Source of the DNA: Escherichia coli O157:H7
GTDB taxonomy: Bacteria; Pseudomonadota; Gammaproteobacteria; Enterobacterales; Enterobacteriaceae
Reading direction: 5' to 3' (one strand)
DNA: 64,000 bases
Assembly (NCBI RefSeq): GCF_013167455.1
Contig: NZ_CP038328.1
The position numbers are program-made. Positions 37,901-43,900 of the stretch are shown piece after piece; the stretch's first letter is position 1, and each line of letters starts with the position of its first letter.

Positions 37901-40900
37901 GCTGCGGTTATTGCATTGCGGGCTGTCCGTTCGACATTCCGCGCCTCAACCCGGAAGACAACCGCGTCTACAAATGTACGCTGTGCGTTGACCGCGTGGT
38001 GGTTGGGCAAGAACCAGCCTGCGTGAAGACCTGCCCAACGGGCGCGATTCACTTCGGTACGAAAGAGTCGATGAAAACGCTGGCGAGCGAGCGCGTGGCG
38101 GAGCTGAAAACCCGCGGTTACGACAATGCGGGCCTGTACGATCCGGCAGGCGTCGGTGGTACACACGTTATGTACGTGCTGCACCATGCTGACAAGCCAA
38201 ATCTGTATCATGGCTTGCCGGAGAACCCGGAAATCAGCGAAACCGTGAAATTCTGGAAAGGCATCTGGAAACCGCTCGCAGCTGTTGGCTTTGCGGCTAC
38301 CTTCGCAGCCAGTATCTTCCACTACGTGGGTGTCGGTCCGAACCATGCGGATGAGGAAGAGAATAATCTGCACGAAGAGAAAGACGAGGAGCGCAAATGA
38401 AACGACGTGACACCATCGTGCGCTACACCGCGCCGGAACGTATCAACCACTGGATCACCGCCTTCTGCTTCATCCTGGCGGCGGTGAGCGGGCTGGGCTT
38501 TTTGTTCCCGTCCTTCAACTGGTTGATGCAAATCATGGGCACACCGCAGCTGGCGCGAATTCTGCACCCGTTTGTCGGCGTGGTTATGTTTGCCTCGTTC
38601 ATCATCATGTTTTTCCGTTACTGGCATCACAACCTAATCAATCGGGATGATATCTTTTGGGCGAAGAATATTCGTAAGATCGTCGTCAACGAGGAAGTAG
38701 GTGACACCGGGCGTTATAACTTCGGTCAGAAATGCGTTTTCTGGGCGGCGATTATTTTCCTGGTTCTGCTGCTGGTGAGCGGCGTGATTATCTGGCGTCC
38801 TTATTTTGCGCCTGCTTTCTCAATCCCGGTGATCCGATTCGCGTTAATGCTGCATTCATTTGCCGCAGTGGCGTTAATTGTGGTTATCATGGTGCATATC
38901 TACGCCGCCCTTTGGGTGAAAGGCACGATTACCGCCATGGTGGAAGGATGGGTTACCAGCGCTTGGGCGAAGAAACATCACCCGCGCTGGTACCGTGAGG
39001 TCCGCAAGACAACGGAAAAGAAAGCTGAATGAGTATTCGCATAATCCCGCAAGATGAGCTGGGTTCGAGCGAGAAACGTACGGCGGATATGATTCCGCCG
39101 TTATTGTTCCCTCGGCTCAAGAATTTATACAACCGCCGCGCCGAGCGTCTGCGCGAGCTGGCAGAAAATAATCCGCTGGGTGATTACCTGCGCTTTGCTG
39201 CGCTTATCGCCCACGCCCAGGAAGTGGTGCTGTACGACCATCCGCTGGAGATGGATCTGACTGCGCGCATTAAAGAAGCCAGCGCACAAGGCAAGCCCCC
39301 GCTGGATATTCACGTTCTGCCGCGTGATAAGCACTGGCAAAAGCTGCTGATGGCGCTGATTGCTGAGCTGAAACCTGAAATGAGCGGCCCGGCGCTGGCA
39401 GTGATTGAGAATCTGGAGAAGGCATCGACTCAGGAGCTGGAAGATATGGCCAGCGCACTGTTTGCCTCTGATTTCTCGTCCGTCAGCAGCGATAAAGCGC
39501 CGTTTATCTGGGCTGCACTGTCGCTCTACTGGGCGCAGATGGCCAATCTGATCCCCGGCAAAGCCCGCGCTGAATACGGCGAGCAACGTCAATATTGCCC
39601 GGTTTGTGGTTCTATGCCGGTGTCCAGCATGGTGCAAATTGGCACCACTCAGGGGCTACGTTACCTGCACTGCAACCTGTGTGAAACTGAATGGCACGTT
39701 GTGCGCGTAAAATGCAGCAACTGCGAGCAGAGCGGCAAACTGCATTACTGGTCGCTGGATGACGAACAGGCCGCGATTAAAGCCGAAAGCTGCGATGACT
39801 GCGGCACTTACCTGAAAATTCTCTATCAGGAAAAAGAACCGAAAGTTGAAGCCGTGGCAGATGACCTCGCCTCTCTGGTACTGGACGCGCGAATGGAGCA
39901 AGAAGGCTATGCCCGCAGTTCCATCAACCCGTTCCTGTTTCCGGGTGAAGGGGAGTAATCTCTGACGTTTTCCGGGTGGCGCTGGTCGCCCGGATTACAG
40001 CTCATAGGGTGTGACGACACCATCTCTCGTATTCCGCGTTACCACCTCAAGCTATGCCGCCAGTGCCTGTTTTGCCTCAATTTACCCACCCCCACATCAA
40101 TAAGGTTATGGGTATGAGACTGATGATAAGCGTAAGATTGCCTGATGCGCCGCGCTTATTAGGCCTACCAATAAACTGCAATACATTGAATTTATACGAC
40201 TTTGTAGGCCGGGTAAGGCGTTCACGCCGCATCCGGCATGAACAACGCGCACGTTGTCAGCAATCTGATTGATATCATTTTTTCCCATTACCATTCCTCG
40301 CGCAGCTTACGCTGGTATTCGACACCATCTTCCTCACACCCTTGCCATATGCCAAAAGCACTGGTTCTTACTGTTTGCGATTGATTTACCAAGTATTGAT
40401 CTACCGCTTCCCGTAATAGCTCCGTACGAGGAAGATTACGCTGCACCTCAAGATCATCAAGTTGCTTAATCACCTCATTCGATAAATCGAGTATAATTCT
40501 GCCCATATCAATACCTGCCAGAGAGTTCATAAATATTTGACCAATATCATTTGATATCTATGGAGAGAAAAGTACCCTTGTCGAATCTTTAAAGAAAGCT
40601 CATTTACGCATCATTTTTTATTTTTGCGAGGCGTTTTCCAGATATGATGTAACAGTTGCAGTTATTATAAGTTCAAGTAAAACAGCCTTCTATTAATACC
40701 AGAATAAGGGCATCTGTTTTTTATATTCAAGAATGAAAAATTTTTGTCATTCCTTATGCTCCTTACACTGATCATCAACACCAACTACCTCCCCCTTTTG
40801 CCTGCCTCCCTTTGCTTTACGCACCGGGAATTGCTGACGTTCCAGATATTGCTCTACCGCTTCGCGTAAAATTGCAGATCGTGAAACCTTACGCCAGCCC

Positions 40901-43900
40901 CGAAGCTTGTTCAGCCGTTTAATTGCCTCTTCTGATAAATGAAGAAAAACCGTATTCATCGCCATTACCACCACCTTACATATATTACTCATTAATGTAT
41001 GTGCGAAAATTACGCCGAAAAATTAATTAACGAAAGCGGATTTTTGCATGTTGTTTTGTTTTTGCGAGACGTTTTCCAGAAATAATAAGAGCGTTGCAGT
41101 TGTTTCATTTGTTACTCAAAAATGGTTTAGTTATCGCCCAGGATGAGTTATGGGTGCTACGAATATATTATATTCAGGGATATTTATTTTTTCATTGAAT
41201 CTTTATTTGCATAATCTGAATGGTGTACCCGAAAAACGTCAGCATCCTAACAGCACCAGGATTTAAGGTGAAATTAATCTTCCATCACAGACCGGTCAGT
41301 ACTGCCACCAACCGGTCTTTACTTGCTCATCGTTATAATTTTGTTGGTAACAGTTCGGGAAACAAGGAATTCCTTCCGGAACACCCCCGGCATCATCCGA
41401 TAGCATTGACGTCAATCATCGGCTCGACGGTGAGTTTTTTTAATCGCATCATAGGGTGGCAACGTTCAGCACGATACGGGTCATAACAAAACTCCTGAGC
41501 AGCGGCACTATGCCGCTTTCACAGGAGTTCTGAATGCCGGTGCTTTCTGTATGGCTTCGCCATGCCCCTCGCGGCTAAGCGCCTGCACACATCTCTCTTT
41601 GTATTTCATTTTTGCAATGCATTGGCCGAATTCTGATAATCCTAATGAGTTTTACTCTTCAGACTCCCATCCCTACGGTATACGAGTTAGATTCATGAAT
41701 GAAATCGACATTTTTAAAAAACGAATCTTGTAAAACATCCGTGTTGATATTACCTTGCAACCCAACATTAAATTTGTTAGAGAGATGAAGAACTCGAATA
41801 TCAAAAAGGTCTTTTAACATCATTACTTCTTCGGCTGTTAATGAATCGCAACTAAAATATCCCTGTTGATCAAAAAGGTTTTCTATTTCTCCATCATCGG
41901 CGAGGCGTTTTTCAAAGAGTGTTTGCAACATCGAGTTGCCAAGGACAATGGATATCGTGCGATCTTTCGCAGATTTACACCCCATCACAACGGCAACATT
42001 CGTATCCCCCTCAGGAGTTTCATTTATCGCTGTCGCTATAATGGTGGTCAAACACGCAAACGGAACTGTATTTCTTTCGTGATTTAATTTATCTACCAGT
42101 TTATTCCATTTATCAAAAGCCGGGCGATATTTGTTGCGCACAGAAGTATCCGACTGGTTAAACAATTCAGCCATGCGTTTTTTTATCATCTCGATATCCG
42201 GCGAACCAGAAAGACTTTGCGCATAATACGGTCCTGATGATGTTGCATACATTAAAGCCGCGCCCACACCTGTCGCCATGATGGGTGCAGCCACGGTTTT
42301 GGCAAGGGCGACGCTGCGATGGCTATGCGCTTCACAGGCTAAAGGAACATACTCCACTAGCTGCGGTAATTCCTTACATGCCTCCCTCATCATTGCGGTA
42401 TGCTTTACAAACAACGGTTGTTCACTGCCCAAAAAAACTTTCTGCTTAATTGCACTAAGAAAACGTAAATCAAAAATGATTGTTTTTGGTTTATTATTTT
42501 TTGGTACATTACCTATTATCCCGCTAAGAACCTTCCTTGCTGCATGGAGATTTTTTTGCACAGCACATAACACAATTGACTAAGTCTTCTCTACTGCATT
42601 ATTGATTTTAATTTTAAAATCCGCATGATATACGTTGACGGGCAATACAAGTATGTCTGGCGCTACATCTTTGGCTGAGTATTTATTGGTGATCGACGGC
42701 CGTGAATCCACGAGAAAACTTAGCTGCAAATTATGCTCTATATTACCAGCTGTTTTTGTGGTGTGATTAAACATAGAGATGCCACCTCTCATTCTTTCAC
42801 ACATATCCTCAACTTTTTCACTTCGTTCTTGTGGCAATTTGGCTTTAACGTTAATTTGATGATTTTTACCCGTGCATTCCTTAACTACAAGAGGAATGTT
42901 ATCTAAAGTGCCATACAGGCTAATAACATCACCAGGATTTTTATCATGTAAGTAAGTTTGATTAATACTCGAAGCATTCACAAAGAGGTCAATATTATAA
43001 CTGTTTATAACTTCACCTACATCAAATGTGTAGTGCTTACTCTGGAGGCTGCCATCCTTATTTAATTGTATATCAATCAATATATCCCCGGACTTTGTCA
43101 CCATATCTTTGCCATAAACCATTTGCATAGCCATTTCGAGGAGATTTTTATCTAACTGATTGCGGGCGTTGAGTAAGCGACTACCAAATAATTTATATAC
43201 TGTTCCCGTCATTGCCAGCGCTGCGCTTTCTGGTACTTTGCGTTTCCACAGTGAGGTTTCTCTATTTTTAAACAGGTCATATTCATTATTACTCGACAAA
43301 CCATACTTCAGTTCGTTAACACAATGGAACAGTTGTTCCTCACCTTCCATTTTAAGGCGATGTGAAAAATCATTTAATAGCGATTGCTTCGGTGATTCAT
43401 TACTCATTAGTTGTTTTTCTAAATTAACAACAGAATAACTTTCTTGTTTAATGAGATTAATATTGGCAACCATTACAGCCTCCTTCCCACGGTTTAAGAG
43501 CAAACATGCTACATAATTATTTATAACATCCAGAGCAGTAAATGAATGATACTGACAATGATGCCAGCCCATTATCTTTGCATAATGTTTGTTAGCTATA
43601 GATTTTTAAAGTATTTATGAGAAAACTATGGCACCAGAGGGGGTTTTGACTATCAAAAATCGCTCAAACCTGAACTAAGATGATGAATTAAGCATTATCT
43701 GCGATAATTGCTATACAGCTCTACAAATAATATTTAAATGCTCCTGAACAGTGATGTAGCAAGACACGTATGGAGCCAACGAAGAATAAAAATTTATAGA
43801 GTTCTTATTCAATATAACCGAAATAGCCAAGGACTAATATAAATGACCTGAATGAGAGAGGCAGCACCGCCCCTCTCCATCAGCTACTCTTCTTCGTTCC

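Follow-up and report, generated by a model that had tools for sequence, protein, structure and literature searches.

Orphan antitoxin genes, left behind once the toxin has been lost, belong to the general course of type II toxin-antitoxin (TA) evolution. Two genes that almost certainly have this origin, yiiF and yiiE, are considered here together with the element repeated upstream of each; they encode small ribbon-helix-helix (RHH) proteins and lie in a stretch of 64,000 nucleotides of the Escherichia coli O157:H7 contig NZ_CP038328.1 (assembly GCF_013167455.1), hereafter the window. The closest described TA module is the VapBC complex of Klebsiella pneumoniae (PDB 7BY2 and 7BY3), credited to Kang et al. 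(2020, J Med Chem) where PMC11117207 cites it. As regards control, hicAB of E. coli and toxTA of Haemophilus influenzae combine a promoter with a Sxy-dependent CRP site (CRP-S) and an antitoxin-repressed promoter (PMC6957337). CRP-S sites are set apart from canonical CRP sites by a T-rich flank (Cameron and Redfield, PMC1635313), and in the Enterobacteriaceae their half-sites without C6 always carry G6 (PMC1635313). They occupy class I positions, near -62, -73 or -100, and a low affinity for CRP is expected of them without Sxy. In the sxy promoter, a 'conserved TGCGA' and a 'non-conserved TTCCG' half are jointly needed for Sxy-dependent activation (PMC6728893); Sxy raises ppdD expression 90-fold in a manner that depends on CRP, and the ppdD CRP-S fragment has been tested by electrophoretic mobility shift assay.

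The explanation that best accounts for the present locus, to which we give a probability of roughly 0.7, is that yiiF and yiiE are a pair of orphan vapB genes, that a 22-bp core of the repeated element is a CRP-S site, and that GATAT repeats in front of yiiF form the RHH operator. The literature on the two genes is nearly empty. Apart from lists of uncharacterised transcription factors, it consists of two mentions from genomic systematic evolution of ligands by exponential enrichment (SELEX): YiiE is among the SlyA targets (PMC6134199), and a weak RpoS-holoenzyme peak lies between yiiD and yiiE (PMC5493296).

Origin of the antitoxin genes and decay of the toxin

The yiiF gene occupies 40288-40530 (-) in an 80-residue form, the classical 72-residue form starting from the ATG at 40506 (K-12 annotation), and yiiE occupies 40747-40965 (-), with 72 residues and an alternative ATG at 40959. 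The region containing both is 100% identical to NZ_AP018488. A first-pass annotation of the window had described the genes as head-to-tail RHH paralogues sharing LREAV(D/E)QYL, and the open reading frames (ORFs), the common motif and an overall identity of 41% (E = 7e-13) agree with it. Against Pfam RHH_1, YiiE scores 44.2 bits (E = 1.5e-11), above the curated cut-off of 20.5; YiiF scores 18.9 bits, just under it, and the YiiF orthologue of Salmonella enterica subsp. diarizonae 28.2 bits. A nuclear magnetic resonance structure labelled 'uncharacterized protein yiiF' is available as PDB 2K5J. One review table places YiiF in the AraC family, at odds with its RHH sequence.

The interval between fabY and fdhE was compared across genera by a scan of one genome per species, followed by tblastn. 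Outside Escherichia, it contains a single RHH gene, the yiiF orthologue, whose product in other Enterobacteriaceae is 56-79% identical to YiiF and only about 45% identical to YiiE. An intact PIN-domain gene of about 120-126 codons stands directly 3' of this orthologue in nearly every one of the 29 loci outside Escherichia (tblastn E from 1e-23 to 1e-32; Pfam PIN E = 5e-18), truncation being seen in two or three of them (L020, L034, L029). Such RHH-PIN loci are present between fabY and fdhE in Citrobacter, S. enterica subsp. diarizonae, Klebsiella, Kluyvera, Trabulsiella, Franconibacter, Lelliottia, Kosakonia and Cedecea. The RHH protein of K. pneumoniae ATCC 13883 (L033) is identical to chain A of 7BY2/7BY3, a 'CopG family transcriptional regulator', and chain B of 7BY2 is a 'Ribonuclease VapC'; this VapB is 68% identical to YiiF. 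More distant relatives, at 35-50% identity, have an N-terminal R-x-x-x-D strand and a tail of the form FG(L/I)W..DG(V/L)(E/D)YQ..LR.EW, and most of them, some annotated on plasmids, also lie directly 5' of PIN genes. From the placement of the orthologues before PIN genes, the identity with 7BY2 and these distant homologues it follows, therefore, that yiiF is vapB.

An intact toxin ORF was found after neither yiiE nor yiiF, as the first-pass annotation had remarked. Its view of the two as orphan antitoxin-type proteins is borne out by the intact vapBC at the same position in other genera and by the vapC remnants in the window, which were located by a blastn comparison between the intact vapC of Escherichia sp. 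E4694 and the DNA 3' of yiiF (79% identity over 66 nt, 83% over 125 nt). A remnant of the vapC start, TAATGGGAAAAA at 40279-40288 (-), overlaps the yiiF stop and belongs to a 42-nt alignment with E4694 at 95% identity. It is followed by a 163-nt insertion of the repetitive extragenic palindrome (REP)/bacterial interspersed mosaic element (BIME) type at 40116-40278, which has no counterpart in intact vapC and gives sub-threshold Rfam matches to ES036 and naRNA4 at 40161-40243. Beyond the insertion lies the vapC pseudogene, 39995-40115, made up of a middle fragment (codons about 20-41; 40051-40115 (-)) and a 3' fragment with an internal 15-nt deletion (39995-40050 (-)), with a 213-nt deletion between the two. 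K-12 shows the same remnant structure, aligning contiguously with the window at 96.7%. Since vapC is broken into three fragments split by the REP insertion, yiiF of E. coli is an orphan vapB, a relic of VapBC; the antitoxin gene adjoining a PIN toxin gene, by which VapBC is recognized, is found in other genera and in E4694 and is lacking in the window.

The second antitoxin gene, yiiE, was found only in Escherichia loci. The gene order in E4694 is fabY-yiiE-yiiF-vapC-fdhE, and E. fergusonii carries yiiE-yiiF without vapC; the tandem duplication consequently predates the loss of the toxin. In the course of events, a segment of about 455 bp (vapB with about 235 bp of 5' DNA) was first duplicated in tandem in an Escherichia ancestor to give yiiE, vapC was then lost in the E. 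coli lineage by REP insertion after the first few codons together with the 213-nt and 15-nt deletions, and YiiE has since its origin changed its DNA-reading strand and dropped the VapB tail. That yiiF is the vapB antitoxin gene, that its toxin decayed and that the duplication came first is, taken jointly, a conclusion we hold with very little doubt.

The duplicated proteins have diverged at both ends. YiiF keeps the N-terminal R..D residues of the family (strand GRIILDL), whereas in YiiE (strand NTVFLHL) R and D are replaced by T and H. The C-terminal tail FG(I/L)W..DGVEYQ..LR.EW is kept in YiiF, as in the 7BY2 VapB and the distant VapBs, and is gone from YiiE; we take this tail to be the toxin-binding part, as in VapB proteins generally. 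The reading frames of both genes are intact in all genomes examined, without frameshifts, and the ratio of nonsynonymous to synonymous substitution rates (dN/dS) is 0.04-0.33 for yiiE and 0.26-0.75 for yiiF. Within the RHH domain of YiiE (residues 1-52), a single substitution is found among Escherichia species. Judged by these substitution patterns, both genes are under purifying selection. Given its changed strand residues, YiiE probably reads another DNA sequence.

Either copy can be lost, since E. whittamii (L005) and E. coli SCPM-O-B-8794 (L006) keep yiiE alone, directly adjoining fdhE and without yiiF or vapC remnants. Two contigs ascribed to other taxa, one of 807 bp from 'Bacillus coahuilensis' (L004) and one from 'uncultured Robinsoniella' (L007), encode YiiE 100% and 87% identical to that of E. 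coli, and YiiF about 90% identical; they are almost certainly Escherichia contamination of those assemblies. An anti-addiction role against plasmid VapC was considered and rejected, as enterobacterial plasmids hardly ever carry this VapC family; the two matches look like a chromosome and a megaplasmid.

Duplicated upstream core and its resemblance to CRP-S sites

The element of about 41 nt that the first-pass annotation had placed about 100-150 nt upstream of each gene, with 32 of 41 positions identical, is found at 40623-40663 and 41061-41101. The copies agree at 33 of 41 positions and lie 93-157 nt (yiiF) and 96-136 nt (yiiE) 5' of the start codons, so that the description stands with one more identity. 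A repeat search extends them to 78-nt copies with 77% identity, at 40589-40666 (-) upstream of yiiF and 41027-41104 (-) upstream of yiiE, each inside one of the two diverged tandem units, which measure about 455 bp. The window contains the 20-mer TTTGCGAGRCGTTTTCCAGA exactly two times, against 0.03 occurrences expected. Between the two units, identity is about 49% in the flanking non-coding DNA, 59% in the coding part, 74% in the 78-nt block and 91% (21/23) in a 23-nt core, and this core is thus better conserved than any other part of the duplication. No E. coli genome carries the element more than twice or away from this locus, and a dispersed repeat or mobile element is thereby ruled out.

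Alignment of the 5' regions of 27 vapB loci from about ten genera with the two E. coli units brings out the same core, about 22 bp long and free of indels, as TTCTGGAAAR-N3-CTCGCAAAA or, in a second notation, TTCTGGAAAG-NNN-CTCGCAAAAG. TGG and CTCGCAAAA are invariant in the 27 loci, and variation at three bases is confined to the dyad centre, positions 11-13. A second conserved block, a TAnnnT hexamer, lies about 57 nt beyond the core. The second part of the element as first described, GTTGCAGTT (AACTGCAAC on the gene strand), is specific to Escherichia. In the window, the 22-bp core reads ATCTGGAAAACGCCTCGCAAAA upstream of yiiF (40622-40643 (-), centre 40632.5) and TTCTGGAAAACGTCTCGCAAAA upstream of yiiE (41060-41081 (-), centre 41070.5). 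A position weight matrix (PWM) built only from the 20 distinct vapBC sites outside E. coli ranks these two copies first in the window, at 32.5 and 33.6 bits, respectively; the next best position, an unrelated one, scores 10.3.

On the opposite strand the core gives CTTTTGCGAG, in agreement with the CRP-S half-site T1T2T3T4G5C6G7A8 at eight of eight positions. One half is a perfect TTTTGCGA and the other a degenerate TGGAA that carries G6, T6 being present in neither, and the core has the 22-bp length, the TGCGA half, the T-rich flank and the lack of T6 by which CRP-S sites are recognized. The K-12 sxy promoter site, TTTCGGAAAGAGCCTCGCAAAT, agrees with the core at 16 of 19 specified positions, the common shape being YGGAAAG-N3-CTCGCAAA. 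In the 8 kb around sxy, the cross-genus PWM places the sxy CRP-S site on top with 17.0 bits, above every window position other than the two copies; in the 5 kb around ybaV (the comE1 orthologue), the promoter sequence ATCCTGAAGCCGCCTCGCAAAAAA is on top with 12.3 bits; and in the 5 kb around ppdD it is TTCTTCGTAACGCCTCGCAAATTT, with 5.7 bits, within the fragment shown to bind CRP in vitro. Furthermore, the ppdD CRP-S site and the yiiF element have the 13-mer TTTGCGAGGCGTT in common. On the strength of these sequence matches, it is quite likely that the core is a CRP-S site.

The TG..N..CA outline, the 6-bp spacing, the class I position and the conservation across genera would also suit a cAMP-CRP (cyclic AMP-CRP) site independent of Sxy, or the site of another host factor acting from about -70. 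This alternative is unlikely, because the canonical T6 is missing, one half agrees exactly with the CRP-S consensus, T-rich flank included, the sites most similar to the core are validated as Sxy-dependent, and the locus is not mentioned among CRP SELEX targets.

The core can also be read as TGG-N8-TCGCA, with the exact GG-N10-GC spacing of a sigma-54 (-24/-12) promoter; its GG and GC are invariant, and its spacer varies. A PWM derived from 135 chromatin immunoprecipitation sequencing (ChIP-seq) sites (Bonocora et al.) gives the true sites at least 6.7 bits, with a median of 14.4, and most core variants only 4.7-7 bits (8.9 in one genus). At most three of the 135 true sites score lower, and about 220 window positions score as well as the core. 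No sigma-54 peak at yiiE/yiiF appears in the main or supplementary tables of the ChIP-seq study, in the RpoN SELEX study or in the main text of the ChIP-exo study. These scores and missing peaks lead us to treat a sigma-54 promoter in the core as ruled out, with the barest chance left to it. Elsewhere in the window, CTGGCGCGAATTCTGCA within fdoI, at 38550-38566 (+), is the published intragenic sigma-54 site IS47 (17.7 bits), and a sigma-54-like sequence, TCGGCGTAATTTTCGCA, lies at 41002-41018 (-) over the yiiE proximal -10 hexamer; it scores 12.7 bits and has no reported ChIP peak.

It is very improbable that the two elements are alike merely through residual or gene-conversion similarity of promoters, or that they form an RNA element of long transcripts. 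The K-12 start sites, at -154 and -189 for yiiF and at -117 and -201 for yiiE, do place the core within the 5' untranslated region (UTR) or at its beginning. However, the flanks of the core are saturated, at about 49% identity, against 91% within it, and the core is kept across genera whose leaders diverge. As for RNA, RNAalifold detected no pair in 23 leaders, and Rfam returned sub-threshold REP-derived matches only, outside the repeated element. A conserved RNA structure or terminator hairpin in the core, which single-sequence folds had suggested, was accordingly set aside. Consensus scans placed no standard sigma-70 promoter within the core, and inspection of the two strands by eye was negative as well. 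A small ORF over the core is ruled out by the invariance of all three codon positions in the flanking 'codons'. Compared by eye, the consensus sequences of LacI/GalR, FadR, marbox, IHF, LexA, boxA and OmpR-type direct repeats gave no convincing fit.

Sequences of the same type were also seen away from the two genes. E. coli Ecol_745 (L003) has a third core copy, ATCTGGAAAGCGCCTCGCAAAT, at 12317-12336, about 120 nt upstream of a toxin-first relE/parE-nadS operon; it adjoins an alpha/beta-hydrolase gene with a LexA box, where the site has its ancestral position. In this strain, insertion of a DUF6708 gene and a hypothetical gene separates yiiF from yiiE (8542-10155), and the core upstream of yiiE has a disrupted left half, TGGATGCAG. 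The bipartite motif TTCTGGAAAG-NNN-CTCGCAAAAG, with a variant ACTGGAAAGAGCTACGCAAAG, lies near SRAP genes (yedK-like, 'SOS response-associated peptidase') and umuD-like genes in L098 (6108-6128; 12 near-identical metagenome loci), in L085 and, at a prophage end, in an E. coli prophage (L114, 7231-7252). GGGGCAT repeats come after the motif, which may represent either a CRP-S site carried on mobile DNA-repair cargo or a coincidental match in a conserved region.

In most other genera (L009, 3785-3870, with equivalents in L008-L034), a divergent alpha/beta-hydrolase gene (Abhydrolase_3) lies upstream of vapB. Its promoter, with the CRP-S-like site about 70 bp upstream, has a perfect LexA box, CTGTATGGATATACAG, over the -10 hexamer, about 53 nt from that site. 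The layout resembles that of sulA (LexA box) and sxy (CRP-S); homology between the two intergenic regions as wholes was rejected, only the LexA box and the CRP-S site being alike. In S. enterica subsp. diarizonae, the hydrolase-vapB region also contains a higBA-like pair.

Promoters, start sites and the GATAT repeats

Published 5'UTR lengths are 201 and 41 nt for yiiE and 55 nt for yiiF in EDL933, and 201 and 117 nt for yiiE and 189 and 154 nt for yiiF in K-12 (Supplementary Table S5, PMC10469882); those of yiiF were counted here from the ATG of the 72-residue form. The EDL933 start of yiiF then falls at 40561, 7 nt downstream of a proximal -10 hexamer, TACTTT (40569-40574 (-)), at a position where TAnnnT is kept in all genera. 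Of the two K-12 starts, one lies 5 nt past TATAAT and the other 7 nt past TATTCT; this TATAAT is the distal hexamer upstream of the core (40664-40669 (-)), at the 5' end of the 78-nt copy, and the start that it precedes is that of the 154-nt 5'UTR. For yiiE, the homologous position in the unit alignment holds the proximal -10 hexamer TAATTT (41007-41012 (-)), with a putative start at 41000 (or 41006), and TATTAT (41082-41087 (-)) abuts the core; the 117-nt 5'UTR of K-12 begins at or inside the core. When the yiiE lengths are counted from the ATG at 40959, all three starts lie 6-7 nt after TATAAT, TATTAT and TAATTT; from the annotated 40965, they lie only 0-1 nt after the -10 hexamers. We infer that the published lengths refer to the ATG at 40959. 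A long imperfect hairpin (AAAACAG...CTGTTTT) at 40680-40723, between the yiiE stop and the distal yiiF promoters, may be the yiiE terminator; the terminator scan made no call there.

With these start codons assumed for the UTR table, the core is centred at -71.5 from the proximal yiiF start and at -70.5 from that of yiiE, to be compared with class I positions near -62, -72, -83 or -93. In the proposed mechanism, the competence co-activator Sxy (TfoX) together with cAMP-CRP would act at the core, about 71 bp upstream in class I position, to switch on the proximal yiiF and yiiE promoters, and the same activation would apply to vapBC in other genera.

The GATAT repeats AGATATCAAATGATATTGGTCAAATATT at 40531-40558 (-), the presumed YiiF/VapB operator, lie where other genera have a near-invariant palindrome, TGATATAC-TGGAG-GTATAT, spanning the Shine-Dalgarno sequence just before the vapB start. 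The palindrome is intact in E4694, which has kept vapC; in E. coli, the GATAT repeats are kept and GGAGG is lost. Distant VapB-VapC loci from unrelated bacteria all have GATAT inverted repeats directly 5' of vapB, for instance TTTGATATATGATGCATATATCAAA, and the core was found in none of those examined; the enterobacterial palindrome belongs to this type as well. Taking the proximal yiiF start at 40561, the repeats span about +3 to +30, a place from which the RHH protein would repress the promoter that Sxy and CRP are proposed to activate. On balance, this pattern favours the GATAT repeats as the RHH operator, with less assurance than the assignment of the core.

The first-pass annotation had instead suggested the repeated element as the RHH binding site. 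Such autoregulation by YiiE and/or YiiF would be normal for RHH antitoxins, and the element was duplicated with each gene and is the best-conserved non-coding part. It is nevertheless an improbable operator. The core is identical at 21 of 23 positions although the strand residues differ (R and D in YiiF, RIILD, and in the wider family; T and H in YiiE, TVFLH); the motif also stands at the sxy, ppdD and ybaV promoters, none of which has an RHH gene; distant family members have GATAT repeats without the core; and the core is asymmetric, whereas RHH operators are built from repeats. Probably, the RHH proteins do not bind the repeated core.

Several observations weigh against the assignment of the core to Sxy and CRP and of the GATAT repeats to the RHH protein. 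The cross-genus PWM did not recover the hofM promoter, and the hicA upstream region yields a weak match of 6.7 bits: the top sequence of K-12 (L117, 4130-4170) is TTTTGCAAATTAGCGCAAAG, followed at once by TTCTGGAATCTTCCTTCC, which shares TTCTGGAA with the yiiE/yiiF core, and either of them may be the published hicAB CRP-S site. The left half, TGGAA, lacks G7, a base in direct contact with CRP, and GGAAAG is unusually conserved for a 'non-conserved' half. In the geometry, the positions -71.5 and -70.5 hinge on the start codons of the UTR table, yiiE fitting only from 40959, and the K-12 data contain distal starts only, which place the core inside the 5'UTR. Binding of the RHH protein to the GATAT repeats is something we infer from their position and conservation. 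No Sxy or CRP experiment on yiiE/yiiF was found in the literature covered, which did not extend to the Sxy-regulon microarray of Sinha et al. (2009), where both may already figure as Sxy-induced genes. They go unmentioned in the CRP genomic-SELEX paper too, although CRP-S sites are expected to bind CRP weakly without Sxy.

The adjacent low-GC island

Compared with K-12, O157 has 2,046 extra bp at 41363-43408, a low-GC segment with two ORFs, 41659-42573 (-) and 42580-43572 (-); the clean 2,046-bp deletion leaves K-12 with only a truncated N-terminus of the 330-residue ORF. The 304-residue ORF contains CKSAKDRT, a CX5R motif reminiscent of phosphoinositide phosphatases of the SopB/IpgD type. Neither ORF has a significant Pfam or NCBIfam match, and PGAP at times labels one of them 'transposase'.

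The first-pass annotation had tied yiiE and yiiF to this phosphatase-like locus, as its regulators or as remnants of the same acquired module. The genes do adjoin the island, and K-12 has the deleted version beside yiiE. Among 5426 E. coli genomes, a yiiEF match is present in 5424 and the full island in 1061, other strains carrying different cargo at the spot (DUF6708, relE/parE-nadS or an alpha/beta hydrolase). Moreover, yiiF/vapBC is syntenic in genera without the island and is much older than it. Because there is no co-variation and vapBC predates the island across genera, yiiE and yiiF are not part of it, and a link of this kind has only a slender chance. The element appears to be, in essence, a shared promoter element unrelated to RHH binding, and the genes do not co-vary with the island; of the first proposals, that of orphan antitoxins is retained, and those of an RHH operator and an island regulator are not.

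Relation to described systems

The status of a VapBC relic explains the origin of yiiE and yiiF, two of the uncharacterised 'y' regulators still left in K-12, as well as their missing toxin partner, and it predicts a DNA site for their proteins, the GATAT repeats. If the CRP-S assignment is correct, vapBC would be coupled to the competence regulator as hicAB and toxTA are, and this wiring would have outlasted both toxin loss and gene duplication. The GGAAAG half common to the sxy and vapBC sites bears on what makes a CRP site Sxy-dependent. A wider proposal is more speculative and, in our estimate, rather unlikely, namely that vapBC between fabY and fdhE and the E. coli pair belong to the Sxy/TfoX regulon and that the VapB paralogues have been domesticated as Sxy-controlled transcription factors. 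In that case, YiiF would retain the ancestral GATAT specificity and YiiE, because of its new DNA-reading residues, would have new targets; a small RHH regulatory tier would operate downstream of Sxy in E. coli, and vapBC would be the third TA family wired to competence, after hicAB and toxTA.

With K. pneumoniae VapBC, the present locus shares the orthologous position adjoining fdhE, a CopG/RHH VapB with the same C-terminal tail, the upstream core (there ATTATGGAAAGCGGCTCGCAAAA) and the palindrome; unlike it, E. coli lacks a functional VapC and carries a second antitoxin gene, the diverged copy yiiE. As in orphan antitoxins in general, an intact antitoxin under purifying selection stands alongside a decayed toxin gene. 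In contrast to them, the E. coli orphan is duplicated, one copy has altered DNA-reading residues, and a putative site for an external activator is kept before both copies. Compared with the E. coli CRP-S sites of sxy, ppdD and, by prediction, ybaV/comE1, the core has the same half-site CCTCGCAAA (= TTTGCGAGG), the same asymmetry and lack of T6, and a similar spacing, about 100-140 nt, from the start codon. Its degenerate half TGGAA is close to CGGAA of sxy and unlike TTCGT of ppdD. Those sites serve DNA uptake or its regulation, whereas here antitoxin genes are concerned, with two copies in tandem. Finally, as in hicAB and toxTA, a type II TA operon is preceded by a CRP-S-type site farther upstream and, nearer by, a promoter and operator presumably under antitoxin control. 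The families differ, being HicA/HicB and RelE-ParE/HTH there and PIN/RHH here; the vapBC order is antitoxin first, only antitoxins are left in E. coli, and control by Sxy is here a prediction from sequence.

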